Below, one piece after another: positions 8,780 to 61,618 of a stretch of DNA of 64,000 nt. Source of the stretch: Klebsormidium nitens (Eukaryota; Plantae; Klebsormidiophyceae). The translations under genes were made by a program, and so were the position numbers. Below the pieces are notes generated by a model. The model saw only the letters and a list, made by a program, of their open reading frames with translations. It was not told where the DNA came from and searched no databases. The stretch covers positions 1 through 64,000 of the forward strand of contig DF237316.1 of the NCBI GenBank assembly GCA_000708835.1, written 5' to 3'. Each line of letters opens with the position of its first letter. The stretch's first letter is position 1.

Positions 8780-9135
8780 TATTTCCCACCACCCCTAGTT
8801 GGTGGCTGTGGAAAGCTTACATGCAGGCTCCAAACGAAACAACTTTGTCAGTCTTAGGGCTTGCACGCTGCATCTCTTATCCATATTGAACTTCATGACC
8901 GCCATTTAAGGCCCAATACGAAGTGGTGGCCAAACAAGAAAGGCAGGCTGTCAAGCTCACACGGCGCTGGCTGGCTACGCTGCATTCCTGCTAGAGCTAT
9001 TGCCAATTGCTAACCATCTACAAGAAGCCCTCCTTTAGCTGCCTGGTTCTTTCACCATCCATTTTTGCGGTTTGGAAAAGAAGCAGCATGTGGAGCCATG
9101 CTGAGGAAGACGCGTTGTCCAGCGCCCATCTTGAG

Positions 9136-27400: not shown

Positions 27401-30400
27401 AGCGAATCGATATCCATATTCAAATCACCTTCGTTGAATTCGTCGGCCAACGTAAGTCGGGTCACGCGCTGCCTTGCCGCATCCATGCTGTGGTGCATTC
27501 TTCAAGGATTTAAACGCTCCAATATTTCCGCACTGCTTTTTAGGCGTCGGCAAACCCGTCATCAGAATCAGGCTACAGATTTATTGAATGTTGATTTTGT
27601 ACAAGATGAAGTTTGAACACGGGGTTTACAGGGTGGTTTTCGAAATCATACGTTCGGTATTGTAGAAGAGGGCTCAGCCCTCTCCTTCATTCAATTTCCC
27701 CAAACTTTCAAGGTGCTTTTGAAAGCTGGTGACTTTTCGGTTTTGAACTCATGCAGGTGCTCCTGGCGGACGGAATAGTCGGCGTGGCGAATAGCGACGG
27801 AGGCAAACGCCCCGGAGGCCTTGGCAACACGTCCTTGGACTGCAGGCGGACGTTCGTCCACCCCAGCCAGCACTCGAGCGGCGAGGCGCTGGAGAAGCAG
27901 TCGATCAGCGGGCGCGACTACTGCGCCGCGAGCCTCGAAGGCGGCGGAATGAAGCGAAGGCTCGTTCTGCAGCCGGAGCTCCGCGACCTGCTTGCGCGTC
28001 TCTCGCAGCACAGGCCGACCTCCGAAAGGCTTGGGCAACGGCTCAGCGAGGCGGAGTACCCGCTTCTCAAGGCAGCGCTCGCTCGGGAGGACGTGAAGGA
28101 GGTGGTGCGTTTCAGCCAGGTCGAGGGTGAACCGGGCAGGCTGCCGATCTTGGCCAGGCGGCGGCTGCTGGACGAGCAGGTTCAGATGGTTCGGGAGAAG
28201 AATCTCGCCGTGCTGCGGCTGCTTTGGGGCATCGAGGCGGACCTAGAGGCGCGAGGGGGCAGCCCCCGCATCTGGGAGCACTCGCCGGGCGAATGGGGCG
28301 AACTGCTCTACGATCTGGGCGCGCACGATGCGGACTGCGGGATCATCGGGACATCAGGCGGCCTCTCGGTCGTCCGCAGGCTGCTGCTGGGGTACGCGGC
28401 CACGGTGGAGGACTGCAGGCTGCTCGGGGCCGGCTCGCCGATCCTGCGGTNNNNNNNNNNNNNNNNNNNNGACTGCAGGCTGCGTCGGGGCCGGCCGTCC
28501 GCCGGACTCCTCGCGGTGGTGCTGGACGCCTACGGCGGCGGCTGCTTCCCGGCCTTCTCGCGCCGGCCCTCCACCATCTGTACATTCTGACCGCGCTGGC
28601 TCGGGGCTGCACCGGCTTCGGGGACGAGCATCGAGACGGCTGGGTGATAGCCGCGCTCAGGCCGCTCAATCACGCCGTCGAGCTCTTGCGGATCCAGGCG
28701 GAGCGGGGCGCGCTGGACGGGCAGGAGACGCGACTTTTGGCGGACGCTCGCGGCCTCGCGGACCGGTTGCTGCCCGGGGTGGAGGCGCTGAGGCCGAGCC
28801 CGGCTCAATGGGCGGCGATGAGCGGGGTTGAGCGAGAGCTCTTATGGGAACGGCTCGGACGTGATGAGGAGGGCCACCAGATGCACCCGCTCCCGCCGGG
28901 GCACGGCTTCCGGGCGGAGCTTGATGCGCTTGGGCATTACGCGTTGCCGGGGTGGGAGCAGAAGCGCGGTCTGCCGCATTACGTCACATTCGAGCACGCC
29001 AACGGGAAGAGTCGGACGGGGGAGGAATTCAAGTGCAATTCGGGGCAGACGGAGACCGAATGGGACGCCGCAAACGTGCCCGGGCTGACGCGGGGAGGCG
29101 GAAAGGGGAAGAAGGCGAAGCGGCCGCACAAGAGCAGAGGCGCCATGGTGGTCTGCTGCCCCCATCGGGTCATCTACGGCTTCCACGTGATGCTGAGAGG
29201 CGAAAGTCCAAGGGACGTCTTCACCGTGCTTTTCACGCGGCTGAACCGGGAGCACCTCCCCAAATTCGTCGTCTACGACAACGCCTGCGCCCTGCGCAAC
29301 TACTGCATGAGGCGCGAGCCCGCGTTTTTCGCCGAGATCACATTCGTCGTGGACAGGTGAGCGTCGAACCGANNNNNNNNNNNNNNNNNNNNNNNNNNNN
29401 NNNNNNNNNNNNNNNNNNNNNNNNNNNNNNNNNNNNNNNNNNNNNNNNNNNNNNNNNNNNNNNNNNNNNNNNNNNNNNNNNNNNNNNNNNNNNNNNNNNN
29501 NNNNNNNNNNNNNNNNNNNNNNNNNNNNNNNNNNNNNNNNNNNNNNNNNNNNNNNNNNNNNNNNNNNNNNNNNNNNNNNNNNNNNNNNNNNNNNNNNNNN
29601 NNNNNNNNNNNNNNNNNNNNNNNNNNNNNNNNNNNNNNNNNNNNNNNNNNNNNNNNNNNNNNNNNNNNNNNNNNNNNNNNNNNNNNNNNNNNNNNNNNNN
29701 NNNNNNNNNNNNNNNNNNNNNNNNNNNNNNNNNNNNNNNNNNNNNNNNNNNNNNNNNNNNNNNNNNNNNNNNNNNNNNNNNNNNNNNNNNNNNNNNNNNN
29801 NNNNNNNNNNNNNNNNNNNNNNNNNNNNNNNNNNNNNNNNNNNNNNNNNNNNNNNNNNNNNNNNNNNNNNNNNNNNNNNNNNNNNNNNNNNNNNNNNNNN
29901 NNNNNNNNNNNNNNNNNNNNNNNNNNNNNNNNNNNNNNNNNNNNNNNNNNNNNNNNNNNNNNNNNNNNNNNNNNNNNNNNNNNNNNNNNNNNNNNNNNNN
30001 NNNNNNNNNNNNNNNNNNNNNNNNNNNNNNNNAACCGATAGGAAACGTTTCCCTTTCGTCATCATCGTCGATGGCGTCTCGCAACTTTGACACCGTTGTA
30101 CGAAATGGTCAACAGTCAAAACCTGCATCCTATTAGATATATATAAGTCGTTATAGATTGCAAGAATTGACTGTTCTCCAAGGGCATGCCGAGGGCGCAA
30201 TGGCCCCCTTGCTGCCTCCGCGTTATCTCAATCGCGAACTTGCAAGCGCCTTCTGGCCCGTTAATATGTGCATTCACTGTGCAACACGGCTTGAAGGTGC
30301 GAGGACGTAGCAAAAGTCGCTGCGATGTTGGTGCAGGTTTCACTACGCCAAGGCGGGTGCGGAGGTTCACAAGTGCGGGCCCTCCAACGCCACCGACTTC

Positions 30401-30673: not shown

Positions 30674-30716
30674 ACGATTGTATCAGATTGTATCAGATTG
30701 TATCAGATTGTATCAC
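30674..30716 (+). repeat. 10-bp tandem repeat (GATTGTATCA)x4
   Basis: Read directly. The TGTATCA/TGATAC core recurs near 30845, 30865, 30945-30965 and 31155. Confidence 0.85.
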
Positions 30717-31175
30717 GTTCCAAACGGTGCGGAATGTGGATTGAATGAATGCCATTTTCTCACTCGCATGCATTGCAATTGGGGGGGGATGGACAAAAAT
30801 GGAGAGGCCAGGCTCGTCGCGTCACAAACGGGTGGAAAATGATCCTGATACATTGATGCGCTTGATACAGTCTTCACAAGTTCTCTATATATATACAAAA
30901 AAACACCCTCTCTTTTTTCAAAATATATATTATACTTTACCCTTGTATCTTGTATCATTTGTATCAGCTTCGTGATGGCCTTTCTTCCTCTAATTCCACC
31001 TCTTTCCCCCATTTGCTTTTGTGTCCTCTAAAGAAATTCCTAGTATCATTCTAAATATTGCTATCATCGCGGCCGTTCTCGGGTGACGAGAGACGTTTGG
31101 GGAACCGCTCACTACCTGATACAGCTTTTATGGCAGGGCCAAAAACGCGTATCAGTTGTATCACCTCCCAGCGAG

Positions 31176-34100
31176 TTACCTGGATTCTCGAGGACCCCAA
31201 CAATCTTCTAATGAAGGCTGGATTCGACACGATTCGGCCACCGGCGGTTCCGAGTTGCCGTCTTCGTCCTCCCGAAGTTCGTCATCGGTCTTGAGCCGGA
31301 TTCCGAAGAAGCCAGCTGATCTGCGTCGCGAACCATCGACCATCGGGATCATTCGATTTACGCCTGTGAATGGGTGTTGATAGATGTTCTTCGCTTTCAT
31401 TGCCTGTGTTAGGATTCCGTCGTTGGCCATCGCTCTATCGTGTCCTAAACTCATCAAGAATGCGGCGTAGGCCGCCGTGATTTCGACTTTGGTGATCTTG
31501 TACTCCCTCCCCAGCTTGCAGAAACCGGAAACTCACGCACCCAACTGATCGTTCTCGGTCGTATATTTGGTGATAGCTGCGCTGAAAATCTGCGGGATTG
31601 GTTTCAGAGCCGGTGCGCTCGGATTTGCCGCCTTACGTGCGTAGTACATCATTGCTCCTTCCACGCAGAAATCTAGGGTGTCGGCAGCGCCCTCGTCCGA
31701 CTCCATGTAGTTCTTCAGGTTGGTGTCGATAAGCCTGTGCAGTGGATTATTCGCGTCGATCTGGTCCTCGCTTCTGAAAAGCTTGTTGAACATCATCAGG
31801 AGGAGGCGCCGAATCATGCCCTCATCGTTGGCGGGGAACAATGGCCGGTAATTCGTCAGCATGCATAGCTTGAAACGCGGCACATAGTTCTCCGTCTTGC
31901 AGAACAACTGGCGAGCATTGATCCCGCCTCCACCGGTTAATTCCTTCAAAGAGCCGCAGTTGAGATGCTCTTCTTGTTCGCTCTCGTCCATGATCACGAG
32001 GCGAGCTGCCTTTATGTGCATCAGGTGGGACGACGCGGCCGATGCGCTCTGGCTAAAGGCTGGTTTGATGAATATGGCCTTTGCACCGGTGGTGCAATAC
32101 GTGCCGAATGCCTTTTGCAGTGCGATTTTCAGCTGCGTTTTTCCGTTTCCTCCGCAGCCATTCAAGATTGAAAGGAGCTCTTCACAGGTCTCGCCCGTGA
32201 GGCAATACCCAAAGAACATTTGGACCCACTCGATGATGCTTTCGTCCAGGACCGAGATCATGAAACCCCGGAATTTCGCTGTGGGGGCTCTGCTTGCCCC
32301 TCGCACGTACGTGAAGGTTTGGTTGTTGCACAGATCCTTCGGATGGTGCTTCGAAAGCTGCCCGGTCTTCAGATCGATCAACCCGTTTGGTGCATTGGCC
32401 ACGCAAGGATCCTAATCGAACTTATCCGTGAGTTGGGCCACGAACAGTTCAGTGATCGTCGAATGCAGACACTTAGCCACTTGGACCGGATCTTGGACGT
32501 TGATTTTGAAGGGGGGCATATCCCTCTCGCTTTGATCCATGCAAGATTTCGTGGCAGACTTTATCATGGGTTTCCGCTTCTCGGGAACCGAATCCAAGTC
32601 CACTTCGCGCGTCTCTTGGTTCCAAAAGGGTGCTAAAACAGGGTGCTCCGATAGCAGCTTCCTCTCATGGTCGTCTCGCTTCATCTCGTACCAAGTCATC
32701 AAAATCCCCATCTGCGATGTGAACACGTTTGAGACGAGATTGTAAGTGTCTTGGATCCAAGAGGAGCCGTTCCATACGTAGAAAACCGCCGCTCCTTTCT
32801 GTGACTTTTCTGCTTCGTGCACGGTGGTAAGGATTCGGCCTTCAATCATGTATAAATATGCAAAGAGCTTGCCCAAGTTGGCAAAAGCTCCAGGTACGGC
32901 ATTGGCAAGTACGATCTGAAGCAGCAAATTCCGGGTCTCTTGAGACCCCTTGATGTGCCTCATAATTACCTGCATGTCGTCGTATTGATCGACCGGATCG
33001 CTGGTGGCATCCTCAAGAGCTGCTTCTAGGCTCAATTGGCCGAGCTTCCTCACCGGCTCGTGGGAACATTGGTCACCGTGGCAGCGGTAGTAGACATTCC
33101 GCCCGCGCTTCAGCAGGTTGAAATTATTGCTGCCTTGATGTTCGCGGCCGAAGAAGCACGTCCTAGGCCCGGTCGTCCGGAAGCAGTAATACGTACCGTA
33201 TAGACCGTGCTGGAGCGAGCTCGCATACGTGCTTGACGAATCCTTCGCCTTCTCCTTCAGCATCTTCTGAAGCTCTCGCACGAGCAGACCATCCTGCGCC
33301 AATGGCACATGTGTCGCACCCCCTGTGACCGGCTCGACCGGTCTGGCCGGCTGGACCGGCTCATCTTCTGAGGCTGGATTCTGGTCAACTTCGCCACCGC
33401 TGTCGACAGCGCGGGGCAGTGGGGCACATTCCGAGGCGGCGATCGAAGGCCCCGCACCAGCTGAGCCTCGATTGATAGTATCGACAAGCCAGCTTGGCAT
33501 TGCCTGTGGGATTCCGTCGCCCTCAGGTGCCCAGGAGTAGCCTCGAGATTCGCCGTGCTGCCCCAGATATCGAGCAGGTGGGGCAAAGCAGAGACCTCCG
33601 ATGCCTCTGCCATCGATACCGTAGTCCTTGCCTTCGACGACCAGCCCTGCAAAGTTGTTAGTTCTATTCAGGCCGACCGTTGCGGTGATGTCGAAGTAAT
33701 AGTGGTAACCCCCACTGCCGGTGACGACCTTCAATGTTGCAGGCTCACCGTGCTGGCTTGTTAGCTTGTTCCAAATTTCAATACCGGAGCGTTTTATCTT
33801 ACCGTCCGACTTGATACTGCTTGCAACGTCGACGTCGACGCAAAACAGCTTACTTGGCTCTGTCATTACAGCAAGGCCGTTACACTTCTTGGACGACCTG
33901 AGGACGCTCCCGATTTTGGCTTTCCACTTGTCCACCGTTGCCAGCTGACCCCAGGGAAGTGAGAATTTCGGATCTTTTTTACCGCTCGCTTTCAAGGTGA
34001 TGGTCACTGGTACACAATAGATTTCGTGCGTGCTCAGGCGCATGATCTCCGAGCTGACGTCCTTGGGGTCTAGGGCCGACGGCCTCACGTCGGATCGAGC

Positions 34101-34268
34101 GCCCGGGGTCAAACCGTCGGGGTATTGTTGAGGAGCCTGGAGGCCTGACGCTGACAAGGTGGCGGCAGTCTCAGAGGAGTTGCTGGTGTTCATGGCGCTG
34201 AGCATGTTATACTCTAAGGTTCTGTTAGGAAAAAAATAAGCGTCAGAAAAACGCACGTACGCGGACAA
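31176..34268 (-). pseudogene. Intronless virus-like prim-pol + D5-like SF3 helicase, ~1030 codons, with two in-frame stops (TAG 32412-32414, TGA 31533-31535)
   Basis: Prim-pol motifs GLAVMT...FCVDVD...TGSGGYHYYF...IDGRGIGG; Zn region YRCHGDQC; D5_N (FD*DPCVANAPNGLIDLKTG); Walker A GCGGNGKT; Walker B LVIMDE; TNYRP. ORFs 32412-34268, 31533-32402 and 31176-31457 share one frame. Confidence 0.85.
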
Positions 34269-34304
34269 CCCTCGAATATTTTCTCAAGTGAGACTACGAC
34301 TGAA

Positions 34305-34637
34305 ATGTCAGACACACTTAACAACCTACCCAAGAAAGGCACTTACGCCGACGAGGTGTTTACCTGTGAGTGCCGCCATTGCTTGACGGCACGAAAATAC
34401 AAACTGCGGAATCCGGATGCTCAAAACCGTTCTATGGCCGAATACTATCAGCGAAACAAAGATACCCTCCTCATTGATCAAGCATGGCTGCGATACAAGC
34501 GAGGGGTGAATCTTCACTTCAAGACCCTTACGAAACTCAAACAAGCTGGCTTCCCCGTAGAAATGACCGCTGGTGCGCCAGCCTCTCAGCCTACAGAGAA
34601 TGATCTGATGCATTTCGTTGCAGTCGAAGCCGCTTAG
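34305..34637 (+). CDS. Small basic protein (110 aa) with a CxCxxC motif, virus-like hypothetical
   Basis: Intronless ATG ORF packed between the primase and recombinase genes. Its stop overlaps the restored recombinase stop at 34634-34637. Confidence 0.55.
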   Translation: MSDTLNNLPKKGTYADEVFTCECRHCLTARKYKLRNPDAQNRSMAEYYQRNKDTLLIDQAWLRYKRGVNLHFKTLTKLKQAGFPVEMTAGAPASQPTENDLMHFVAVEAA

Positions 34638-35690
34638 CCCTTTGGTTTCCTTTCGTACGATCGCATCTGTGTGGTGACTGAATGGAGCATCCTAGACGCC
34701 ACATATTGCCTATCCGCTAGCGAGGCGTCGTTCTGGTACCGGTCTGTCAGGAAAATTGTGCCGCAAGTGGTTGATTGTCAGATGTCGCCCATCAGTGAAT
34801 GGAATCTCGCGAATGAATTGGGTTAGGTACTCGTCGTTCATAGGGTCGCCAAGGTTGCTCAGCAACGTCAGGAAAAACGCTCGAGGTACGAGCTCGATCG
34901 AGCGCTTGATGTAACACGAGAGTCGCTTCGGCATCTCGAACCGCTGCTCCCCGTACTGCTTTGCTGTTTTGAACGACTTTAGCACGAGTACGTAAGTCTC
35001 GGTGTCTCTAGACTCCTTCAAAACGTTTCCGTACTCATCGAACATGTCCTTTGCGGCCTGATTGTGAAAGCTGCCGTCCGCTTTCTGCAACGGGAGGTCG
35101 GACCAATCGCGCCGCTTAGGCGGTTCGAGAACGTTGGCAGCCAGAAGTAGGTGTTGGAAGACCACCTTCACCTCCTCTCGATTCAGGCGCCGCCCGCTCC
35201 CTCGAAACTCTGGCAGGATCTGACGCCTTATGCGCCGTCCCAACTCTTCCATTTTGTCCTTGATCTCCTGCATCGTGATCCAATTGTCCAACTCTTTTTT
35301 GGTGGCCTTTTGGGAGCCCGCGTTTCTCATCTGTTCAGCCTTTGCCAGCAAAAAGCACACGTAGTACTTCCTGTGAGTCTCCTGCCACCCGTTCTGGCGA
35401 GAGAGGGCCATAAGAGGGGTCAGCTTGTTGCACAGTGACCCTTTGCTTGGGTAGTGCTTTTGGATGACCTCGATAACCCGATCTACGCTGTCTTTGATCC
35501 ACTCTAGGTCATCCGGCAGGGAATCGCCCGAACCCAGAAGGCGATGGACCGCATTTAAAGACTTGACATACTGAGCACAGGTGCTCTCAGCCCTGCCCTC
35601 TCCCTCCAGCAATTTTGCATGGCACATGGCCGAGCCGCAGCGCACGATCCTTACGTCATCATCCACGGCTGCTTCCTGCGAGGATGTCAT
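34634..35690 (-). pseudogene. Tyrosine recombinase/integrase of virophage/Polinton-like-virus type, with a 1-nt frameshift near 34751-34755
   Basis: PPKRRD (R), SFKTAKQYG (K) and INHLRH (HxxR). The shifted frame reads LTDRYQNDASLADRQYVASRMLHSVTTQMRSYERKPKG*, which supplies the H and the catalytic Y. Confidence 0.78.
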
Positions 35691-36708
35691 TTAGATATAC
35701 TGAGGAAGTATTCCCAGAATACCACGAGTTCAAAACGACGTCCCCCTGACCATCATAACCCCTTCGAAAGCAATTCCAAGGGAGTCGGGTCGTGTTTTTA
35801 GGAGGGGCACGGACACCAACATCCACTGATTCGGAGAAAAGTGCACTAGGTCGGGATTTAAAAACGCGGTATTTTCTGAAAATACCGATCCAGGGATTCT
35901 AGCTGATAAGGGGGCATGTTCGCATTTAATACTGCTTTCGGCCTGACGATTGGTCGGGAACTGGGCATGATTCTAAGAGGTTCGAGACATTTACTTGGAG
36001 TGCGTCCGGGGGGAGGTCATTTTCTTTGAGCCCTGCTGCATTTTTTTTCATTGCATTTGACAACGATATGGAAGAGCAACCTCTTGACGAAGGTAAAGAC
36101 CGGCGTTCGTTTCGGGTTCTCAAAGCTCTTGACATGAAGTGCACTGATCAAAGCAATAGGCTGGATGGAGCTCGGCTGGAGATCGACGCCGAGAAGGGCA
36201 GAGTAGTCCAAGCGGGCTCAAGAGCAGGATCTTCTCTTTTTCGACTGCTCAAGGCAGATTCCCGTAAGTCCGCAACCCTTCCCTACGCATGCAGCATTCT
36301 CCTACAGGAAACGACGAGAAGCAGCAAGCATAAGCAGTTCGCATACTCTGTCTCTCTTTGCGCATTACCTGAAATAGAAGGCCTGAGGGAATGCAGTTTC
36401 AGGGAAGTTACCGAACAACGGCAACGAAGCTGACGTTGGAGGCATTTGATGCCTTGCTGCAGAAATCAACGGGGAGTTTGAAAAAACAAAGCGTGACAGC
36501 GGCGGCCCTCATGGGTAAAAACCCAAGGCGTTCCAAACCTACGAAGAAGACTCAAACATTGGGGTCTACTCCTTAAGCTCCGATGACCAGTAATTTTACT
36601 TAGGGAAATATTCACGAACTGTCGAATCAACCCGTAAGGCTTGACACAGCAACGGCGCACGCTTCGATGCGTGAAAAAACGGACTACTTTCCTTAAACTT
36701 CTTAAAAG

Positions 36709-37185
36709 CTAGCCTCTCGCGCTGGCTGCGAGCCGGTTGTTGGCCTTACACTTGGCGGGGTTCGCCAGGAGGTCGAGCATGAGGTCATCGGCCGTGAGGT
36801 ATCTCAGTTCGGCGATTTGTGCTTCCATCGAAATCTCATGCTGCGTGCGCACTTTGTCGCATGCTTTCCTGCTCTTGCTATGTTGCTCCGAACGTTTTAG
36901 AACAGACCCCCAGTCTACCAACAGATTGTAGGGGTTTTTGCACCGGTGCACGACTATCTCCGCCTTTTGAAGACCACGGCAAACTGCATTGACCATGTCA
37001 CACATCGAGAATGGTGGGAGGGTCCCTCGAATTCCCGAAATCTCCCCCAACGGCAGTACCATGCCGTGCGTGTGCTCCGTTTCGAAAGTCCGTTTAATGC
37101 GGCTGATAGATTTATCAAGACACTCCTGGTAAAACTGTCGGATCTGATTCTTCGTTTTGTTGTGGGCTGCCAATATATCCTGCAT
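36709..37185 (-). CDS. Hypothetical protein (158 aa), possibly related to small conserved giant-virus (NCLDV) proteins
   Basis: Intronless ATG ORF. The pattern FYQECLDKSISRIK...LPPFSM...VCRGLQ...VV...LLVDW recalls an NCLDV hypothetical family; this is from memory and not verified. Confidence 0.45.
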   Translation of the reverse strand: MQDILAAHNKTKNQIRQFYQECLDKSISRIKRTFETEHTHGMVLPLGEISGIRGTLPPFSMCDMVNAVCRGLQKAEIVVHRCKNPYNLLVDWGSVLKRSEQHSKSRKACDKVRTQHEISMEAQIAELRYLTADDLMLDLLANPAKCKANNRLAASARG

Positions 37186-37771
37186 GTTACTCGTCTTAGA
37201 TAGATGTATGAAAATTACAACTCGCTAAACCGTAATCACCTTCAGCACGTTTAGGTTGTTCAGACATTTGCGCAAAATATTTCCACGTAGCAAAGAGTCA
37301 AATCTGCCACAAAGCAAGGGGGGTATGAGCCATGAAAACGTTTGACAGTGGAGAGTCAAAACTTGCAAATCTTACTTTAGTATATAAGCTATTATCGAGT
37401 GCAAATTTTGACTGATCCGTTCGGCACCATGTAAATCTAAACGGCTCTACTCCAAGCACGGCAGGAGCTTCGTTCAGGCAAGACGGCAACCTCCTTTTAA
37501 AATTTGGGCAAAGGCAGCAGCCTTCTTTAGGACGTTCAGGTTCGTGCGCAAACCATTTTCACGTGGCGAGGGGTCTACGAAAAGACGGCGCCGGTCTCGA
37601 ACGTTTGGCGGCAGCGGCAACTTGCTCTATCAGAATGTTCAGGTTTGTGCGCAGACTATTACCACGTGGCGGAAAAAAAGGGGCCAGTTCAAAACGCATG
37701 CGACATACGTCCATGTTGCGGAAACCTTGAATATTTCCCTTGAATATTTCTGTTGACGAAGGTGCCTTGCC

Positions 37772-37978
37772 ATGAAATCTGTCACCAAGGCAAAGCAGAC
37801 AAAAACCCTTGCACCACTGGCGAAACGCGAGAAGAGTGCGCTGGTCGAAGAGGCTTCGAGGCGATATCAAGAAATGCTCGAATCCGGAGAAGATGAGGAA
37901 TTCAACGTTCTTGTGAAGGAGCATGAAGCGCAGAAAGCCCTTGGCCGGAGAGTCGAGAGTGCCAGGGGGCCGGTCTAG
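37772..37978 (+). CDS. Small charged helical hypothetical protein (68 aa)
   Basis: ATG ORF with protein-like Lys/Glu-rich composition; no recognisable motif. Confidence 0.25.
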   Translation: MKSVTKAKQTKTLAPLAKREKSALVEEASRRYQEMLESGEDEEFNVLVKEHEAQKALGRRVESARGPV

Positions 37979-38350
37979 AACGGCGATAGCCATCTTTGGG
38001 CAAGACGGTCGCCTCGTTCAGATGACGTTCAGATTTGTGCGCAAACAGTTGGCAAGAGAGTCGAGAGCGGGCGGCAGGCTCGTTCAGGATGTTCATGATT
38101 GTGCGCAAATATTTCAACGTGGCGGAACAAAGATGTGCACATAGAAGATCGTGTTCAGGATGTTTAGATATTTGGACAAACATTTTTCAGATGCGATGGA
38201 ACGTTGCAAATTCATGTCGATAGTGAATGACGTGCAAAACAGTAGATGGATATTTACAAGTCGATTTTTGTTGTCGGAAGTTGGACACCTGTCTCCAATC
38301 TATATACAAAGCTGCATCCTCTTAACACTACCTAAAGATCAACTAACGGT

Positions 38351-41300
38351 CTAACTACGTGCATAGACGCTCTTGACCCCCGGATAATACAGCTCCCTCT
38401 TTCCGAAAACGTTGACGGCCTTCCCGCTTCGCTTCAACCCCTTCCCCTCCATGCGCTTCTTCAACGCCTCGGGTTTGATTTCCTCATGCGAGAATTTGTT
38501 GTAGTCGTCGACGAAGTCATGCTCGAGAGTCTCCAGGCCGGTTCCCCGCAGGCAGTGCTTTAGAAAACGCTGCAGCATGTCGCAGTCTTCGAAATAGGCC
38601 CGCGTCGCCTCGACGACCTCCGGCGGAGTCTCGCCGAGGCCCTCATTGTAATACGCAACGGACTCGCGGGCGAGGAGGGAGAGCAACTGCTCTAGGACGT
38701 CGGGGGCTAGCATGCTTTCCTTCAGGCCGGTGTTTGCAAGCCGGTGGTCGGGATTCGATGGGTCGAATCTGTCGGCCGTCACGTAGCTGTTCGGGAATCT
38801 AAAGACTTCGATACGCCTGCGGAAGTTGTCGGCTTTTGGATTGGTCCCCGGGGGCAGCAGGGGGGGGTTGTTGGTCTGGATGAAGGGCATGTGGGTCAGC
38901 GGGAACTCCACGTTTTTGCCGTAGAGGTCTCGGGCGACGATGTCGCCCCCTCCGCACGTCGATAGAACGAGGGCCGCATCCACACACTGAGCTTCGTCCG
39001 TCTCGTCAGATATGACCATGCGCTTGTCCTTCAAGGCGAAGAGGTAGTGGGTTGGCGAGCCCTTCGAGGCAGGCCGCTGTCCAGGGGTTTTGACGACCGC
39101 GTCCGTGGACATGGTGCCGTAGTAGGGGCCAAAGGCGGCCTTGATCATCTCCTTCCACACCCCCTTCCCATCCCTGCAACGCATTACGAATCTTTGACTA
39201 CCTTCTTTTTCGATTAAATCTGATTTTGTAAAGAAGAAGGACATTGAACATCCATATTGCATAGGAAGTGAAGGCCACTAACAGAACTGCACAACGGTCC
39301 TCTCCTTGTCTCCTGTAAATACTCTGCGCATAAGTCCAAACATCCTGAAGGGCCATTGACAGGACTCCACAACGGTTATTTTTCTCGGCTCCTGGAAATA
39401 CTTTGCACACAAGCTCAAACATCCTGAACAACCTCAGGCTGGCTCACCTCCGAGCCCGATGAGAAAGAAGATCTTCTCCTCGCGCGTCATGCCATTTGCT
39501 GCGTAAGCAAACACGCGCAGATACCGCTGGATGAGCGGCTTGTTGGCGTTGAAGATGTCCTCCAAGAACTCCACGGGGGCCGGCGAGGCATGCTCCAGTC
39601 CCTGCCAAAACGGTGGTAAAAACTTAGAAAGTCGACACCCACTTGAATGATCGTGGAACGTTTGCAATGAAGGGGGGGGGGGGAGGTTGAGTTAATGGGA
39701 AGAGAAGCGAGGAGCTCACCATGTAGCGCAGATCGATCATGCGAGTGCACATGTGCTGCGGCCGGTGGGCGTCCAGAGCGCCCGTCTCCAGCTGCCAGAT
39801 GCCGTTGCGGCAGTTGATGATGTGGACGTCCTTATCCAGGAGCGCAAAGAGGTCAAGCGCATACATCTCGCCCTGCATGACCTCCATCGTGCTCTTGATA
39901 GCCGACGAGTTGTTGTAAATCTTGACGCCTTTGATGATTTCTTCCAGTCTCTGAGCCTTCTTCTTGTCCGTCTCGTCTTTCGCCTCCTTCTGCAACCGTT
40001 CGCGTACTCGATCGTACACCCTGCTGAGCTAGTGCATCATGACGAACCGGACGTATGCGCCGGTGGGATCCTCCTCGTAGCACGTCCGTTCCAGAAGTAC
40101 CACTTCTTGTAGAAGAACAGTCTGCGTAGTAGAAAAGAGAGACTATATATGCCCGCCGGTGTATCAGAAAGTTTGGCCAAAAAAAATGAACGTAATAAAC
40201 ATGCCTTTCAAAAATATACAGCCGTTTGGATGTTGGCATCAGTTTGCAGCCCAGATTCGACGGCAACCAGCGTCTCAGATACTCTACGCAGAAGCTTTAA
40301 CAACATAAACATGTCGGACCTGCGCACGTACCTGCCGCAGGATGAGTACATCTGGCTGGCAATATGGCTTCCGCCCATGTCCCCCTGGAACGCCCAATGA
40401 TCCACGAAGCGCTTATCCAGGGTCTTATAGACGCTCTCGTCGTCGGCGGAAACGGGGGCCACCTCCCCGCCGAGCATTGCCTCGTACCGGGTAAGCATCC
40501 CGATCTGCTTGAGGGGGCGGATTTCGCAGCACTCGCTGCTGCTGCAGCAGTACAGCAGCGCCCGGCCGCGGACGAGGACGGAGAAGTTGTTCGAGCTGTG
40601 TTGCTGCCCGTACGGGCATTTGCGCTCTCCGTGTGCCCTGTAGACGTACATGTCGCCGGCTGGGTACTTCTTCAGCCTGTCGAAGGTGGATCTGGTATCC
40701 CCTGCTTTTGCGAGGCACACTCGAATCCGCTCCAGAACGGCCGGTTCGGCGTTGCCATCCCTCTCGGTCGGGTCCGGTTCGGCCGTCGGACCCCAGAAGG
40801 GCTCGTGTTTGACGGAGTCCCTGAAATACACACGAGCGTTGAACGGTCGGCGGCAGCTTGAACTATCATGAACGGTTGCACACCTCATACGTCTCTGCGT
40901 TCAAGTGTTCAAGAAATGGCACAAAATATTCTCAACCTCTACAGAAGTGGTACAACGGATGCATCTACTGGGAGGATTCGAAGAGCGCCATGGCATCCCA
41001 GAACAAGCCTCACCTGGCGGCAGCCCCCTCGCCGTTGATGACCGCGATCAGCCAATCGGGCATTGCCTTCAGGTTGGACCGGTCCTTCAGGATCTCTTGG
41101 ATCCACTCATACCGCCGCTCCTCGCCGTCTAGGGCTCTGTAGCAGCTCGGATCGCAGTATATGAGCCCTCCGTCTCCCCGGGTGTCGATTCCCACCTGTT
41201 TTTCTCCACGTGAGACCTTGCCGATTGCCGCCGCTGATCAGACCCGCTTGCGTCGAGGCCGCAAGGGAGAAAAACAGGTGCAGGCCACCCCTTCCCGTTC

Positions 41301-44220
41301 GCTCGCAAGGGGTGTCGTCGGGCAAACTGTCGTTCTCTTCCACCATCTGTCCGAAGGCGACATCTCCGCCACCGGACAAATCGATGTCGACCACGTAGCG
41401 ATCCGATTCCGACCCGGTCATGATTGCTAATGATTTGCGCCCCTGTTTCACGTGCTTCTGCAAGCAGTTGTCCAGACGACACTCCTTCCAGCCGTCGGTG
41501 AAATTTCGCGGCTTTTTGACGCCGTCCTTGTTGACGAAGAGGTCCAAAGTGCACGCAGGGATTGCGAGGCTGTGAAAGTGGCGTGCTGCAGCGACGCATT
41601 TGTCTACGGCTGGCTCCGTTGCCTCTGCTGTCGCCTCCTGCAAAAGCCGGAGACCGATATTACTTTGCCCGAATTCTTGAACATCCTAAACATGCATACG
41701 GCGAAGGCTACCAGACTGGGCACGCATCCAGGTGTTTAAGTTTTCGCCGAAACTATTATGGGATCCTAGCTCAGAGGGCCTACCTCCGACCCGTCGTCAG
41801 TGGCTTCCTCAGTTGCCTCCGGCCGTGGCTCAAGTAGTCCGATCTCCATGCCAGCGTGAGCTGCTGCCCCTGCCGCCACCTGGAAAAGCTGGAGACCAAT
41901 AAAAGTTTGGGCGAATCCATATACATTTTGAACATACGTACGGTGAAGGCCAAGGCTACCAGACTTGGCACGCCTCCAGATGTTTTTGATGTTCATGCTT
42001 TTGCCCAAATTATTATGAGATCCAAGGTCAGTAGGTAGGCTGCCTCTGCTACCGCCACCTGGAAAAGCCGGGGACTGAGATTACTTTGCGCAAATTCCTG
42101 AACACTCTGAAAAAGGACAAGGAAGGCTACTCGGCAACGCATCCGGATGTTTGTGATGTTCATGCTTTTGCCCAAACCGAGGTCAGCCGACCTACCTCCG
42201 ACCTGTCGGGAGTGGCTACCTCAGTTGCCTCCGGCCGTGGCTCTTGATCGATCTCCATACCAGCCTGTGCTGCTTCCCCTGCAGCCGCCACCTGGAAAAG
42301 CCGGAGTCCGGGTTTACTTTGTGCGAATTCCTGAATACTCTAAACGGGACGAGGAAGGCGACTTCGAACGCATCTGGATGTTTACGATGTTTATGCTTTT
42401 GCCCGAAGTATTATGGGATCCTAGATTAGTAGACGTACCTGCGACCTGTCGCGAGTGGCTTCCTCAATTGGCTCCGGCCGTGGGTTTGCTTCGATCTCCA
42501 TACCAGCCTGTACTGCCGCCTCTGCTGCCGCCTCCTAAAAGATGCCGGAGGCCGAGAAAGGCTTGCGCAAATCCATAAACACTAAGATGCTATTAGACTC
42601 GGCAACGCATCGGAATGTTTATGATGTTTATGCTTTTGCCCAAAACTATCACCAGATCCAAGCTCAGTCGACATACCTCTGGATCGTCGCAAGTGGCTTC
42701 CTCGGCTGGCTCCATCCGTGGTTATTGTTTGACACCTTCGCACCATTTGGCAACAGTGGATGCGGTCTTCCACGTGTTCAAGATGTTTGGACTTTTGGAC
42801 AAACTATTTTCATGTGAGCGAAGGAGAAGGGGCAGGCTTTTGATGGAATCTGTCACGGGGGTGCCCCCTCTGGATATTTGATGTCCTTCTTTTCTATATG
42901 ATCATCTTTTTTATTAATAGGAAAAGAAAGACATTAAACATCCATAGTGTTATTGGATCGGAAGGCCATTGACAGAACTCTGGTTCTCTCCTTGGCTCTT
43001 TGAAAGAGTTTGTCCAAAAGCTTAAACACCTTGAACATGAAATCGAGAGGTTTTCTCTCGCCTAAAGTCTTTATGGGTTCCAGAGTGAAAGACCTACCCC
43101 CGAGTTGCAAATGGCTTCCACAGTCGCCGGCTCTTGCGGCATGGTGCCCACTGCCGCTGCCTCCTGGATCAGCCAGAGACCGAGATTAGTTTGCGCAAAT
43201 TCAAACATCCTAAACATAAAGCCTCGGCGGCTGCCGCTGATGTTCATGCTTGTGCGCAAACTGTATATGGGATATTGAATCATATACCAACCTCTGGATC
43301 GTCGCAAGAGGCTTCCTTGGCTGGCTCCGGCCGTGGCTCTTGTTGGATCTCTATACCGGCATGTACTGCTGCCGCCACCTGAAAGAGCCAGAGACTGAGA
43401 GAAGTTTGCGCAATTCCATAAACGTCCTGAACAAGACAAGGCATGCTACCAGGCTGGGCACGCATCTCGATGTTTATGCCGTTTATGCTTTTGCCCAAAA
43501 CTATCACGGGATCCAAGCTCAGTCGACATACCTCTGGATCGTCGCAAGTGGCTTCCTCGGCTGGCTCCGGCCGTGGCTCTTGATCGATCTCCATACTAGC
43601 ATGTACTGCTGCCTCTGCTGTTGCCTCCTGCAAAGTCGAAGACCGAGAGAAGTTTGCGCGAATTCCTGAACACGCTGAACAGGACGAAAAAGGCAACTCG
43701 GCACGCATTCGGATGTCTATGATTTTTTACTTTTGCCCAAAACTATCACGGGATCGAAGTCTGTAAACCTACCTCTCGATCGTTGCAAGTTGCTTTCACA
43801 AGTGACCCCCGGCCTTGCTCATCTTCCATCTCTGCCGGCGGTTGGTGAAAGTTGTCCACCCTCGTGTCCAGCTCCATATCAGTTGCCACTGTCGCTGCCA
43901 CCTGGAAAGTTTTCCAAGAATAGTTTGCGCTAGTTCCTGAACATCTGAACACTGGATGGAAGATTTCTACTGATGTGCATGCATCTTGTGGTGTTCAAGC
44001 TTTTGTCGAAACCTTGTCACAGTGCTAGTGAACTCACCACTTTGCAGGCGGGTTTTGGCCGCTTGCCTTTTTTTGGCATCCTCGTCTTCGTGCGCTTTGT
44101 GCTTTCGTTACTGAGCATGACAGCCTCCAAACTAGTGCTCATGCTACTTACGTATTCCGGAGAAGTTGGCGAGTACAGTGTCTCAGCTCCTGGAGCCATT
44201 TCTGGACTGTGGTTTTCCAT
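38351..44220 (-). pseudogene. Second prim-pol/D5 helicase gene, intron-containing, with an N-terminal array of acidic repeat exons (copy A)
   Basis: First exon 44220-44038, then repeat exons, then prim-pol (LAIMTG...YVVDID...TGRGGLHLFF...IDTRGDGG). Further motifs: CPYGQQHSSNNF, D5_N (LDKDVHIINCRNGIWQLETG), and helicase (DGKGVW, MVISDE, QTNNPP). GT-AG introns lie at about 41000-40832, 40330-40120, 39720-39605 and 39447-39177. There is a frameshift near 41210 and a TAG near 40030; the frame at the last junction is unresolved. Confidence 0.78.
41620..43960 (-). repeat. Tandem array of ~9-10 degenerate exon+intron units (~200-250 bp each), block A
   Basis: On the minus strand each unit reads ttttccag/tgcag | VAAEAAVHAGMEIDQEPRPEATEEATCxxxE | gtaggt/gtatgt/gtacgt. 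Confidence 0.85.
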
Positions 44221-45025
44221 CTCAAAAGGCGGGGTTTCAATGCTAAGAATCGATGTACAACCGTGCTGTATGTTGGAGGGAGCAATGCCGACTACCTTGC
44301 ATCCGCTTGTGCTTTCGCCACTGTTTGGAAGCGCTTGCTAAGCTTTTACAGTCGTGTATCTTGTGCCGATCACTCATAAGCCCTCTTTGAACCTTGCAGC
44401 TTTTAGCAAGACTTTGAACACGAATTGAAACCTTTGCACGAACGTTTGCGCACGGTGGCCATCGACGGCCGTCGCTGCACGATCGGGAAAAGTTTGGTCC
44501 AGACCTTGAACAGTCTGAACATGCTCGATGAAGCCCCAAGATAGCCTAGCCTAGTTCCCTCCGGCGCTACAAATTTGGGTGATGCGGCGGGCGTCGCCGA
44601 TCGGTTGAGCCTAACGTTCGACTTCATATGGTTTGGCCGCATATTCGGGAGGTGGGCGAGTCCTTGGGCCCTGGGGCGCCTATCGAGGGTTTGAAAATAA
44701 GGTCGGTCAACGTGGCAAGGCATTATCGCATACTGTTAGGTCTATGACATTGGCGGGCTGTCAAGCCCAGCAGGAGACGTGTCATCTGTAGTACTTTGAT
44801 CCGGAAAGCAGTACTGATGGGCGTGGCTATGAAGGCTGGTCAAAATACTCATAATGATCAGCCTTCGTTGAAGGGCAAACCATATGCAACCACGTAAAGA
44901 AAAGCAATGAAAATCCACGTACTATCTTCTAGTAGGGGCCATCAGAGTTCAGAACTTCAGCATTCAAACTAAACACAGCAACAAACGTTTGGCTTGCTCT
45001 CAAACGCCACGAATTTCCTTCAAGA

Positions 45026-48000
45026 ATGGCGGAGGTTACCGAAAACCATCTGAGAGTAAAGCTGCATGCTCTGCAGATTCTGTCCGGACAGGAAGGTGCA
45101 AGCCTACTGCTTACGGAACTGGGGGTAGCCATAAAAACACAGATGGGACATACAGTGAAGGGAAAATTGAAAAAGATTCTAGCACTGTTCCCTGCTGATT
45201 TCTGGATTGATGCTCAAGACAAAGTAGTCCTGCTCAACAACCAGAGATCCTCAGGAAGGCCTATAGTGCCCCTCGAACAGGACGTTCTCCGTGCAAACCC
45301 CTCAAGATGCCCCTCTAACTTCCTTCCCACTGTCACAGTCCAAAAGAAGGAAGGAAAGGCTTCACAAGCAGGGGCAGTATTGCCTGCCTGGGTGGGCATC
45401 AAGCTGAATCGTGTGGCCTCCCAAAGCGGTGCATCTAACAGCAGCGCATCTGCAAGCACAAGCCAAAACTGGCTCATCAAACCAAAGGCGCCAACTCCGG
45501 TGACTGCAAACAAAGTGCCAACTCCGATGCCTGCAAATCAAACTTCAGAGACCAAGAGACTGGGAAAGCTTCCTGTGACTACGAGGCAAGCACCAATTCA
45601 TTTGACTGGACCTCAAGCACCATTTCAAGTAAACGAGACTCGAGCACCAGTTTCATCAACTAGGAATGACGAGGCACCAGTTCCAGCAACCAAGGACCAA
45701 GCATCGGTTTCAAATACAGCCGTCTGGGTACCCCAGCCACTGGTCGCTCCAGAGAGTCCCAGCCAGGTGCTTGTCATCACCGACAAGGAAGCTCTGGGTG
45801 CCGCTGTTCAAAGCATTGCACAGCATTCCACCATTGCAATCGACTGCGAAGGTTGCAACCTGAGCCGGACAGGAAGGCTGTGCCTCGTCCAAGTGGCGCT
45901 CCCCCCTCCCAAGCACTGCGTATATCTCTTTGACCTTGTCTCTATGGACTCTGACACATTAGAAGCACTGAAGCAAAGCCTCGGGACTATACTTGAGGAC
46001 AGGAGCGTCACAAAGGTGATCCATGACTGCAGGCAGGACAGCGACGCCCTCTTTCACCAGCTTGGCATCCGGCTGGATGGAGTGTTTGACACTCAGGCTA
46101 GCTACGTGGCGCTGGTTAAAGTGCTGAAGGCGCAGGCTTGCAGCACGAGCAGGTTTGTCCCCCTGCCAGGCCTAAACCAGCTGCTGAAGGAGTATACCGG
46201 GAAGGAGAACTCGGCGAAGCAAGATGGAAAGGTGCTCATGGAGAGGGTAAGTTATGCACTGCTGGCTGTTGAAAGAAGTACTCTTCAGCAACGGGGTTTG
46301 TGTTCGTGTTTGTGTTATTTGTGGCTTCCATTGGTTCTGAGCCTCAGAATGGCTGTCAACGTGTCTAGTAAGTGATAGGCAGATCAAAAGCGTTCTGTTG
46401 GGCTGACCAATGAGGAGGCATACGAACTCGAGCAGGGCTTGAAAGCGAACGTGTACCAAGCATTCTTTTTGAGCTGTAAGAACTCACCTTTCATTTGAAA
46501 AGGCAATCAGTGGAGAAGGTTCTGCCATTTGCCTTGAAAGATTGATCAAATTTCTGCAGCTCTATATCGTGAAGATCTCACCTAAGCGATCATTAGACTC
46601 CATCAGACGAGGACTTCTTGAGCTTTAAAACCTCCCTCGAATTGACCGCTGAGGTTGGAGATGGGAGCTTCCCTGCTCCCATCTTTGACCTGGAAGCTTA
46701 CAGGCAAGTCACTTCGAGATGCATTGTGAAGCCATCTAACGATAAGAACTGCTGAGGTATCACCAATAAAACCCAGAGTCGGTCCGTCCTCCTTGCAGGA
46801 CCCCTCCATCTGGGAAAAGCGCCCCCTCAGCTTCGTCCTCCTACAGTATGCGGCTCAGGACGTCATGGGTCTCTTTGCCGTCCAAGACGGTATCCTCCGA
46901 GACTCTTCGAAACTCGCCCTGGCTCAGCTGTCGCTCGCTAGTGCACAGTACGTCGGCGCGTTTCGCAACAACGGGGCGTCGGGAGCCCCTCCCAGCGGGA
47001 AGCAGAGGATGGCTTTCAATAAAACGGGCCGTCTGGTGCCCGTATCCGAGTTGACTTCTGAAGACACAGCCCCTGAGGAGAGCAACAGCACGGAAGAAGA
47101 CTTAGCGGAGCTGCTGGCTCTTCTTCCGATAGACTTCACCGCAGAGCTCGCGAGCGGGGGCCATCGACTTATGGAGATTGTGCTCGACTTTGGCAGGCGG
47201 CCTGTTGCGCGCTTCCTCGATGGTAGCCGCGCGTTTCTCGCCCCTGAGGTGGTCTCGAGAGCAGCCCTGAACTCCGCAGTTCAGCGACTGGGTGCTTTTG
47301 GGAGCGACAATCGGGCGGGCGTCCCTGGCACTCTGCATCGCATCAGCGCGCTGCGAGAGAGGGACTCAGGGGAGGTTCTTGGGCTGACCTACCGGGTGGG
47401 CCGAGCGGTTCTTGGGAGTGCCAGCATGGCGCGTGATATGCTGAAGACGGGGGGAAATATTTTGCTCCTGGGCCCTCCGATGACGGGCAAGACAACAATA
47501 ATACGAGATCTGGCGCGGCTTCTGTCGGACGACAGTTGGGTGGTGATTGTGGACACCTCGAATGAGATTGCGGGAGCAGGGCCTGTGGCGCATGCTTCGG
47601 TGGGGAACGCTCGACGGATGCAGGTGAGATGTGAATCCGACTTTCAAAAGGGAAGCATGCTTTTCAACCCGACGTTGCCGCCGCAGATTGTCGAGAATCA
47701 GGTCCAGGGAAGTATAGAGGAGTTTTGAGGGAAGTATGGGAAATTCATTTTGCTTGGATTTCTGTCTGCCTTTGTTGCTCGAGCTTGTGAAGAGATGGTA
47801 TGGGAAGCTGACAGCCCTGAACAGCCAATCCACTTTGCGTTGTCTTCACGAAGCAATTGAGGAGGTAAAGATGATTCATTTCGAACCGTTTTGACTCCCG
47901 CTTGTACCCCGTCAAGCAGTGCATTTGCCCGCTACGTTTTCCTTTTGAATTACATTCATCTTTTGTATCATTCTTTGTTTTTGGCTATTGGCGTCCTTAC

Positions 48001-48615
48001 ATATGCCCCCTACCTATTAGAAACGATCAACACGCTTAGCATACGAGTCATGGGCTTTGCAGCATTTTGCATCATGAAGTGTTGCCTCTCGCTTCTTTGT
48101 AGCCGAGCATGGCATTCTAACAAGATATGAATTGTTTGTAGGTGAAAAACTTGGAGAGCCAGTCCGCAACCATGATCGAGTGCGTTCAGAACCACGCCCC
48201 AGAGGTGATCGTTATAGACGAGATTGGACGCAAGAAGGAAGCAGAGGCTGCGCGCACAATCGCCCAGCGTGGCGTGCGCCTCATCGCGAGTGCGCATGGA
48301 AGCCTCGCCAGCCTCGTCTCCAACCCGTTCCTTTCAGAGCTGCTGGGAGGAGTGGACCTCGTGACAGTCGGCGACTCTGCTGCAAATAAGTTATACAACG
48401 GCAGAAAGAACGTCCAACAGCGGAAGCGCGAGTCCATCTTTCAGACGATCATCGAGCTCGCCCCAGAAAGGTTAAGCGAGTGGGCGATCTTCGATGACGT
48501 TGAGACGAAAGTCGATAAGATTCTTAAGGGAGAGCCCTTCGAAGCAGAGATTAGAGTTTTAGACACTCAGACGGGGACGATCATGGTAGGACGAGAGATA
48601 CGTGTTCACCAATGA
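45026..48615 (+). CDS. Fusion protein: winged-helix (LOTUS/OST-HTH-like) N-terminus, DEDDy 3'-5' exonuclease (EXD1/Egalitarian-like) and ycf45/SpoIIIAA-like AAA ATPase; exons 45026-46246, 46799-47623, 48142-48615
   Basis: ExoI IAIDCEG, ExoII IHDCRQDSDAL, FDTQ, ExoIII YAAQD; DNRAG...LHRISA...GLTYRVGRA; Walker A GPPMTGKTT; VDTSNEIAG; QNHAPEVIVIDEIG; ASAHG. Both introns are phase 0 and GT-AG, and no disablements were seen. Confidence 0.85.
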
Positions 48616-48639
48616 TTTGACCCCCGCAATTGTCTAGAT

Positions 48640-60108: not shown

Positions 60109-61618
60109 ATGGTTCGCAATGGGGTTGCGGGCATCTCCCAACTGAGTGGCGTGCTTTTTGGGGTTTTGATTGGTGCACCTGCAGTGTTCCTTTACACGCA
60201 CATTCATCTAGCGGTCACAGGCCAATCTTTGGCCGTTGTTGGAGCTAATGGGATGGTATTATCTCACTGGAGGGGGGCTTGGAGGAGGGCTTTGAACAGG
60301 TCATCTCTATGTCCTGAAGGTGAGTGACATTCTCAAAGTAGGACGCTTGCATTAGCAGACTCAAGAATGTCCCCACTTCCAGTATAGTTAGGATCTTGAA
60401 GGGGATGCTGCTCCGGTTTGTAGTCGTGCTTGACTGCTTGCTGTAGTGTGCTCAGTTGGGCTTGCCTTGGGAGGAATCCAATTCGGTGTTCTTAAAGAGG
60501 GCGTCAGATTTCGAAGCGCACTAGTAACATCTGAGTCCTTAGGGGACTCCCTCATCGGACGGACTAAATTGCATCTTGGAATTTGTCCCGAGCAACCAAT
60601 ATGCCTGGTTCCGCGGCACATGGTCGCCGAGGCGTGACGGGTCACGGGACGCCCCCTTTAAAATTTCCTACTCATCAAAGATTTTGAATGTCAAGTTCAC
60701 GTCTTTTCATTGTCTAACATTGCAGAAGCTGGCAAGCGTGCAAGTGATACACTCGAGGCTGTTGCTTTGAGGTACCACTTGGCCATTATAGGGACTCCAC
60801 ATCGCAAGCACCTTTCCCGCTTTCTTCTTGAGACGATCCTCTCTGTCCACGCAAAAGAAGCACGGCCCACAACACTTTCGCTTGCTTGGGATGCGCATAA
60901 TGGGAGCAAGCTTCCTAGCTATATAAAGAACCTGAGCCCGCAAGTCCATGTTCATAGCCTAGAAGCTGAAATCCCGGACCCTCCTTCTAACAGACCCGGA
61001 ATTTCAAATGTTTACTCTGCGCTCCTCATCCCTGAGGAGGTTGGTATGCCAACATTGCCTTCGCTAATGATAGAGGGGGATATTATGCTCGTGGACGACT
61101 TCCACCTGTACCTTTCAAAAGTAGTGCAACTTGTCGAGTCAAAAATGGGTGGATTGGCCCACAGGAAGTACATGGTGACCTTGTATACTCCCATTGATTG
61201 GAGACGCATTGGACCCCTTCAACAAGTCTTGCAGGTTCGTCAAGGTCTTCGAATTAATGAATCAAGTTCGGCAAACATGTCAACCGTTGAGGGTCTTTCA
61301 GTAAACGATTGTTTCCCAGATAACTGGGATTATGGGACGCAAGGCGTCTTGGTTTCAGCTCAGGTTCGGAGTCCATTACGCGAGTTTTTAAAACCATACG
61401 CTTTGGGTGAACAAAAAACAGACTTGGGTATTGACCTGCTTTTCCATGAGTTTCTTCACAAGAACAACGATAGTGTCCTTTGTTTTAGTACGTCACCGTC
61501 CCTTGTAGAGCATATGGGCGTGTTGTCTGCCCTATTTGGAGAAAACCAACGTTTTCACATGAGCAAAGATTTCCCAAGAGAAGTGTCTCTACAGACCGAT
61601 GAAGCTGGGGATGTCTAG
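60109..61618 (+). CDS. Type II membrane protein, putative glycosyltransferase-like; exons 60109-60319, 60726-61618
   Basis: N-terminal TM segment (VLFGVLIGAPAVFLY); phase-1 GT-AG intron keeps the frame; LMIEGDIMLVDDF, WDYGTQGVL, IDLL and SPSLVEHMG resemble GT-A fold motifs. Confidence 0.6.

Follow-up and report, generated by a model that had tools for sequence, protein, structure and literature searches.

An intron-rich primase-helicase gene in Klebsormidium nitens

The first 64,000 nucleotides of Klebsormidium nitens contig DF237316.1 (forward strand of assembly GCA_000708835.1; hereafter the window) carry a minus-strand gene for a virus-type primase-helicase that is split by introns (copy 1), two incomplete copies of the same unit (copies 2 and 3) and, beside copy 1, an intronless primase-helicase (Table 1). 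Copy 1 specifies a Prim-Pol domain, whose DxD, TxxGGxH and D motifs are visible in the translation; a Cys/His segment, for which a Pfam search returned no family; and a D5_N domain followed by an SF3 helicase with Walker A, Walker B and sensor Asn. Walker A ends in GKG, as in all close relatives, and profile matches of the SF3 part include the solved C962R and D5 helicases. The domain order is that of the intronless neighbour, as a preliminary description of this DNA had proposed.

Table 1. Features of the primase-helicase unit, its copies and its neighbour, in window positions
Feature	Positions	Strand	Remarks
5' flank	44221..44600	-	common to copies; one motif site (44491) directed into the unit
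Likely first coding exon	44038..44220	-	61 codons from ATG; basic KR-rich end; open, phase 0; ATG and donor identical in copies 2 and 3
Tandem exon+intron units	41638..44037	-	seven clean phase-0 acidic exons (129, 96, 87, 66, 96, 96, 96 nt) and two damaged units
263-bp insert	42775..43037	.	inverted ends built of the motif; resembles part of core intron 4 (~71%)
Prim-Pol exon	41014..41637	-	PF09250, E 1.4e-8, above cut-off
Core intron 1	40821..41013	-	193 nt, GT-AG, phase 2; one motif site
Cys/His exon	40332..40820	-	putative zinc-binding segment C-P-Y-G...H-S-S-N-N-F...Y-C-C...C; 42-59% identity to P0037, P0190, P0191
Core intron 2	40122..40331	-	210 nt, GT-AG, phase 2; has motif
D5_N exon	39720..40121	-	PF08706, E 4.8e-12
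Core intron 3	39602..39719	-	118 nt, GT-AG, phase 0; without motif
Exon ending in Walker A	39448..39601	-	3' end lies inside the motif
Core intron 4	39174..39447	-	274 nt, GT-AG; two motif sites; position common to copy 2
SF3 helicase exon, to stop codon	38351..39173	-	phrog_1156, E 4.5e-28; TIGR01613, E 6e-13
3' flank	37248..38182	+	six motif sites, all directed into the unit; common to copy 2 down to ~38076/49331
Copy 2	49330..53200	-	both flanks, repeat exons and intron 4 retained; most catalytic exons deleted
Copy 3	55410..58560	-	5' half; stops ~25 codons into Prim-Pol exon
Intronless primase-helicase, separate family	31179..34196	-	part of KFL_003670050; in-frame TAG 32412-32414 and TGA 31533-31535
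Tyrosine-recombinase-like open reading frame	34630..35690	-	Preplasmiviricota type; frameshifted near end

The preliminary description had read at least four GT-AG introns from the letters; all four lie on the minus strand as listed, and the five splice signals quoted for them are present. These core introns have a GC content of 0.44-0.51 compared with 0.55-0.63 in the exons; each holds a stop in the entering frame, and three of the four have a length that is not a multiple of three. The exons are collinear with P0037, the closest intronless full-length protein, at 30-48% identity. At the sites of introns 2, 3 and 4, the last of which splits Walker A, all seven intronless relatives aligned are contiguous, and intron 1 falls in a linker that varies among them. 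The anatomy of these segments and the continuity of the relatives thus identify them as introns and not as coding sequence. A structure prediction made from a seven-row alignment (pLDDT 38.5) was discarded.

The gene extends 2.6 kb upstream of the Prim-Pol exon, from an ATG at 44220. Eight phase-0 exons precede the Prim-Pol exon, seven of them variants of one acidic unit; the introns of the tandem units are likewise GT-AG and measure 128-153 nt, which brings the whole gene to at least 12 introns.

Transcription and splicing of the 5' part of the gene in this family have direct though weak support from X15, one of four RNA-type sequencing runs. Its contigs, which derive from a paralogue and have a depth of 4-5, run directly from the end of one repeat exon into the start of the next (43100 to 43629; 43540 to 42536) and retain one intron where the chain ends. 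They connect the first exon with a repeat exon within a span of no more than 294 letters, compared with 520 in the genome, a shortening that spans the first two introns. A 137-nt contig piece from the same run is identical to the Prim-Pol exon and spans no intron. Of the junction evidence advised earlier, contig joins were thus found for the 5' exons of a paralogue in one of four runs; no contig of the four bridges a core intron, where contigs can show presence but not absence, and no RNA run is listed as carrying 38300-44300. Matches of 35-42 nt in RNA runs had unrelated flanks and were set aside. Run X5 shows mostly C>T and G>A changes and covers the repeats but not the host gene at 44600-48700, which a bisulfite-type library with methylated repeats might produce; its library type is unrecorded, and it was not used as evidence.

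Copy 1 is a pseudogene

The reading frame of copy 1 is not intact, and this copy cannot make the enzyme. Its Prim-Pol exon carries a frameshift at ~41195-41211, where the frame changes relative to all homologues; the D5_N exon carries a second frameshift at ~40080-40091 and an in-frame TAG at 40029-40031; and the intron-4 junction is off phase by one base. A 488-nt contig of DNA run X1, possibly of the same strain, matches copy 1 perfectly over both the second frameshift and the TAG, which are therefore not errors of the window; assembly error is ruled out as their source. At the intron-4 junction, the other copies represented by contigs of X1 and X3 have a one-base length difference, so this break is not family-wide. 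An alternative code in which TAG specifies a residue would be insufficient because the frameshifts would persist, and the GT-AG spans that could serve as micro-introns across the frameshifts are 6-10 nt, too short. With four lesions, the self-synthesising ability suggested in the preliminary description fails for copy 1, which would depend on the whole replication and insertion apparatus in trans; for the family, this ability is an unproven inference.

A motif confined to the introns and ends of the unit

The three copies are marked by a motif of ~30 bp, in which two GTTCA-like words nine bases apart are followed by a near-palindrome (for example, at 37269-37278). It occurs at 74 sites, divided 29/26/19 among the copies, with none elsewhere in the window and none of the 29 sites of copy 1 in an exon. 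Repeat introns carry the motif in back-to-back pairs. In an independent test, for which the core introns were excluded from training, introns 1, 2 and 4 scored 12.2, 22.8 and 30.8 bits and outscored all of their 300 shuffles, whereas intron 3 did not. The best score in the 46 kb outside the copies was 7.8 bits, and no site was found in this host and other DNA, RNA-confirmed host introns included. The core introns are not alike over their full length: what they have in common is the short motif, and intron 4 additionally matches part of one insert. The terminal sites face into the unit, as seen for the 5' end in copies 1 and 3 and for the 3' end in copies 1 and 2. The motif ends at 37248 and never occurs inside the neighbouring element.

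Copies, paralogues and selection on the frame

All three copies lie on the same strand, and their longest blocks are 72-80% identical, non-coding flanks and introns included. Copies 2 and 3 are deletion derivatives, of which copy 2 keeps both ends. One repeat exon of copy 2 contains an insertion of five telomere-like CCCTAAAA-type units (51144-51184), which stand out by very high DNA-run depth and possibly mark a healed break; a lone repeat exon+intron fragment lies just past the 3' end of this copy (48700-49060).

Four annotated K. nitens paralogues (KFL_002130220, KFL_008160040, GAQ92546 and KFL_016840010), 35-68% identical per exon, bear acidic N-terminal arms of their own. Their discontinuities coincide with our exon boundaries: the homology of P0190 picks up again exactly where exons 4 and 5 begin, that of P0192 where exon 3 begins, and P0193 loses homology right after the intron-3 donor. 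Seven ab-initio open reading frames (ORFs) start just past the intron-4 site or have unrelated leaders that end there. Intron positions thus appear to be common to paralogues at 45-55% identity, as read from protein models and not from paralogue DNA. The JGI ORFs of the family are single exons.

Of 33 differences between copy 1 and a paralogous DNA contig, 24 fall on third codon positions (p 4e-6); compared with copy 2, the beginning of the helicase exon has 17 differences, 11 of them at third positions. This excess argues that the helicase frame was selected until recently, while it already bore introns. The earlier view of a eukaryotised replication gene therefore holds for the family, through apparent intron sharing, third-position bias and the 5' joins in X15, and not for copy 1, which is dead. 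Scans for related loci returned nothing of use: viral contigs gave two weak 24-residue matches, metagenome contigs none, and prokaryote genomes four Prim-Pol-only matches at 27-34%.

The intronless neighbour belongs to a separate clade

The DNA at 30700-37240 fits a Polinton-like remnant. It comprises the recombinase-like ORF, the intronless primase-helicase, an ORF with a weak DUF5759 match (36712-37224; E 0.0036) and a plus-strand ORF at 34218-34637; no capsid was seen in it. The recombinase-like ORF has Atlas feature scores of 0.98 to clusters of mostly viral records and 0.94 to a cluster in which 16% of the members carry Phage_integrase. In Polinton-like viruses, a primase fused to an SF3 helicase commonly occurs together with a tyrosine recombinase (PMC4642659, PMC11296320, PMC12220804, PMC3671162). 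The K. nitens gene model KFL_003670050, 100% identical over 69% of the first ORF of the intronless neighbour, joins recombinase and primase through unlikely introns that skip stops. Near the downstream end of the remnant are four perfect 10-bp tandem repeats (30676-30715). The intronless family has at least 10 annotated relatives in K. nitens; the recombinase-like ORF is not part of the unit bounded by the motif, and copies 2 and 3 lack it.

Trees of 55, 34 and 22 rows were built by quick searches with SH-aLRT support only; the largest holds 11 of the 32 neighbour-family matches and 34 hand-picked long matches. Copy 1, the four paralogues and JGI/Logan ORFs form one intron clade (SH-aLRT 98-99), sister to the intronless P0037/P0189 (89-96), whereas the neighbour groups with P0069 in a separate clade (100). 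A clade made up exclusively of both families was rejected (p-AU 5e-10; 0.035, marginal and post hoc, when P0069 is included). The sister proteins come from Logan and ENA contigs, and look-alikes are mostly viral records. Since the helicase parts of the intron gene and of the neighbour are only 27% identical and fall into separate clades, neither gene arose from the other by recent duplication. On the question of paralogy versus independent capture raised by the preliminary description, recent duplication is thus out and the two helicase families probably represent separate entries, which the trees make likely without proving it. Its further idea that the intron gene serves replication of the element with the intronless primase was not borne out because two more copies occur without that element and the proteins sit in separate clades.

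Flanking DNA

The unit region is bounded on one side by a remnant resembling a KDZ (Kyakuja-Dileera-Zisupton) transposase (25575-30200; Cys-rich ORFs, GC 0.66-0.69, broken up by N runs) and on the other by an expressed host gene. This gene, at 44600-48700 between copies 1 and 2, encodes a fusion of a 3'-5' exonuclease domain with a SpoIIIAA-like AAA ATPase, and both its introns are spliced in all four RNA-type runs. Intron-bearing host genes lie within 0.1-5 kb; a long, gene-dense block of core genes of nucleocytoplasmic large DNA viruses (NCLDV), as in a giant endogenous viral element, is not present, and the weak DUF5759 match was the sole hit in that direction. Ordinary host genes for a plastid ATP/ADP transporter (TLC) and a C2-domain protein occupy 10216-17029 and 1671-8794, and long plus-strand ORFs without a Pfam or PHROG family lie between and beyond copies 2 and 3 (53451-54815 and 60662-61618). 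An Rfam scan of 36000-60000 gave no match.

A one-gene replicase element as the favoured reading

We lean towards the view that the stretch first described (38351..41643) is the 3' half of a damaged member of a multi-copy primase-helicase family whose gene has at least 12 GT-AG introns, likely the sole gene of a capsid-less mobile element and likely derived from a replicon of Polinton-like-virus or phage type. The best reading of the unit is a dispersed, intron-rich replicase element of ~7 kb that has neither capsid nor integrase and would copy itself. Its ancestor would have entered the nucleus intronless, come under host RNA polymerase II control and gained introns early, and its acidic N-terminal arm may have grown by duplication of one exon+intron unit. 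In the most speculative step, the spliced protein of intact copies would bind the ~30-bp motif through its C-terminal domain, for which binding is predicted; the SF3 helicase would then unwind and Prim-Pol prime and extend, giving extra copies. Insertion could proceed through host repair or through a recombinase acting in trans, for which the tyrosine recombinase of the intronless family is one candidate.

Several points weigh against this reading. No intact copy was seen as DNA; models P0190-P0193 are themselves partial or skip conserved segments, and may be broken too. The three adjacent copies on one strand could be local segmental duplicates. The motif matrix was trained on the same 74 sites, most of which come from one duplicated unit, and binding of the motif by the protein is a proposal. 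Splicing of the four core introns is deduced from homology only; the X15 joins stem from one run of low depth whose RNA nature is guessed, and concern 5' exons of another copy. The shared ends show no terminal inverted repeats (TIRs) or target-site duplications (TSDs), just short inward motif sites, and no transposase, integrase, HUH or capsid family was found among 89 ORF references scanned. Capsid and packaging ATPase were absent from these 89 in Pfam and from 13 in PHROGs, libraries that are weak for such capsids. With no TIR, TSD, transposase or integrase, the insertion step is left unexplained.

A more ambitious form of the proposal is possible but doubtful: a new kind of DNA transposon whose sole gene encodes a fully eukaryotised, intron-rich Prim-Pol/SF3 protein, and which would replicate from an iteron-like motif in its introns and ends, have neither capsid nor transposase, and borrow a recombinase from the adjoining Polinton-like family.

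It is unlikely that the genes are simply a domesticated host family, in which a single viral capture became intron-rich, expanded and decayed by segmental duplication in repeat-rich or subtelomeric DNA, and left copy 1 as a pseudogene. Host-like splice sites, a high GC content at third codon positions (0.71-0.83), selection on the frame and the spliced 5' transcript would all agree with domestication, as would the telomere-like run inside copy 2 and the failure to find TIR, TSD or integrase. However, all copies seen are broken or partial, homology ends discretely, and a deletion derivative retains both ends; the motif saturates the introns, points inward at both ends and is absent from 46 kb around; and members diverge down to 41-50% identity within one genome.

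We regard as rather improbable a larger latent virus, Polinton-like or giant, that carried both this gene and the intronless primase-helicase with its recombinase, the introns marking a latency or nuclear gene as in punuivirus. The two families adjoin here and on another scaffold, of 32,100 bp (KFL_008160020 and KFL_008160040), and each has a member listing a 75,568-bp contig, perhaps one and the same JGI contig; an intact endogenous giant virus is reported to have latency genes rich in introns. Such proximity in 2 of 10 cases would be rare under random placement (p 0.0002-0.015, for an assumed genome size), but repeats cluster anyway, which voids this null, and 8 of the 10 annotated scaffolds of the intronless family gave no intron-family match in our searches. 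Moreover, the neighbour is absent beside copies 2 and 3, the motif does not extend past 37248 into the neighbour, and Pfam, which is weak on such capsids, found no capsid or packaging family in the window.

Least probable is a dead viral insertion later invaded by an introner-like miniature inverted-repeat transposable element with motif ends, which would make the introns uninformative about helicase expression: the motif shared by introns 1, 2, 4 and the repeat introns, the ~71% likeness of intron 4 to the 263-bp insert with inverted motif ends, and published introners of polinton-like and giant-virus insertions, most of them acquired after integration, speak for it, but the motif is missing from 46 kb of host and other DNA, RNA-confirmed host introns included, the core introns are dissimilar over their length, the positions of introns 2, 3 and 4 are apparently common to 45-55% paralogues, and the frame was selected between intron-bearing copies.

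If the family does copy itself as a one-gene replicase element, it would illustrate how a viral replicon can become a one-gene, spliceosome-dependent nuclear transposon in which introns serve as stores of cis-acting sites. Even if it is merely decaying, intronless and intron-rich lineages of one enzyme coexist in one genome and could be used for dating intron gain. Gene calling that ignores introns, the standard in surveys of endogenous viruses (PMC10120064), would overlook such elements or break them into pieces. CHG and CHH methylation marks silent transposons of K. nitens (PMC5890265), and the virus-derived genes of this alga show an enrichment of methylation (PMC12344493), a pattern that would suit silent, decaying copies.

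Comparison with known systems

Introns in endogenous viral genes are already known, and we found no prior description of the intron-rich K. nitens family in a literature search that left most subscription journals, repeat databases and supplements outside. An NCLDV survey lists Klebsormidium markers, with an apparently empty D5 column (PMC5294986).

Polinton-like viruses share with our gene the fusion of primase to SF3 helicase and the many integrated copies in algal genomes (PMC4642659, PMC10120064, PMC12220804), and the intronless neighbour family with its recombinase fits them. In contrast, the unit showed no capsid, ATPase, integrase or TIR and has at least 12 spliceosomal introns, whereas endogenous viruses of this kind are stated to be intron-free (PMC10120064).

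Giant endogenous viral elements and mirusviruses also have virus-type genes with canonical GT-AG introns, taken as a sign of nuclear, host-style expression; such introns are reported in endogenous giant viruses (PMC9693826, bioRxiv 10.64898/2026.10.09.758095), mirusviruses (PMC12768974) and polinton-like insertions. The earlier premise that introns in such a gene are exceptional should thus be toned down. Genes of giant elements lie within large viral genomes, with a mean of 2.5 introns per gene in punuivirus (bioRxiv 10.64898/2026.10.09.758095), unlike the dispersed ~7-kb one-gene unit with a non-coding motif of its own.

D5-like helicases in the terminal repeats of entomopoxviruses stand alone, are multi-copy and repeat-flanked, and have been proposed to be mobile without a known transposase (PMC11296320). 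They reside in cytoplasmic viral genomes beside T5orf172 nucleases (PMC11296320), whereas the K. nitens unit is nuclear and intron-rich, has an acidic repeat arm and showed no nuclease partner.

The P4-family primase-helicases of phages and plasmids (TIGR01613; PHROG 1156) have D5_N and SF3 domains as well, but the best named phage matches to the closest intronless relative reach only 27-31% identity over ~60% of its length. Phage and plasmid primase-helicases recognise origins at short repeated sites, which serves as the model for the proposed mechanism (background for which we found no source).

Helitrons, like the element proposed here, are eukaryotic mobile elements centred on a single replication protein that derives from a plasmid or viral replicon (PMC11296320). 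Their protein combines an HUH nuclease with a Pif1 helicase, unlike the Prim-Pol and SF3 domains of the K. nitens unit, in which Pfam scans found no HUH family. Helitron Rep-helicase genes are intron-rich, and the elements have neither TIR nor TSD, neither of which was found at the ends of the K. nitens unit. If the transposon tentatively proposed above is real, it would parallel Helitrons with a primase-helicase as its replication protein and represent an intermediate stage on the way from virus to transposon.

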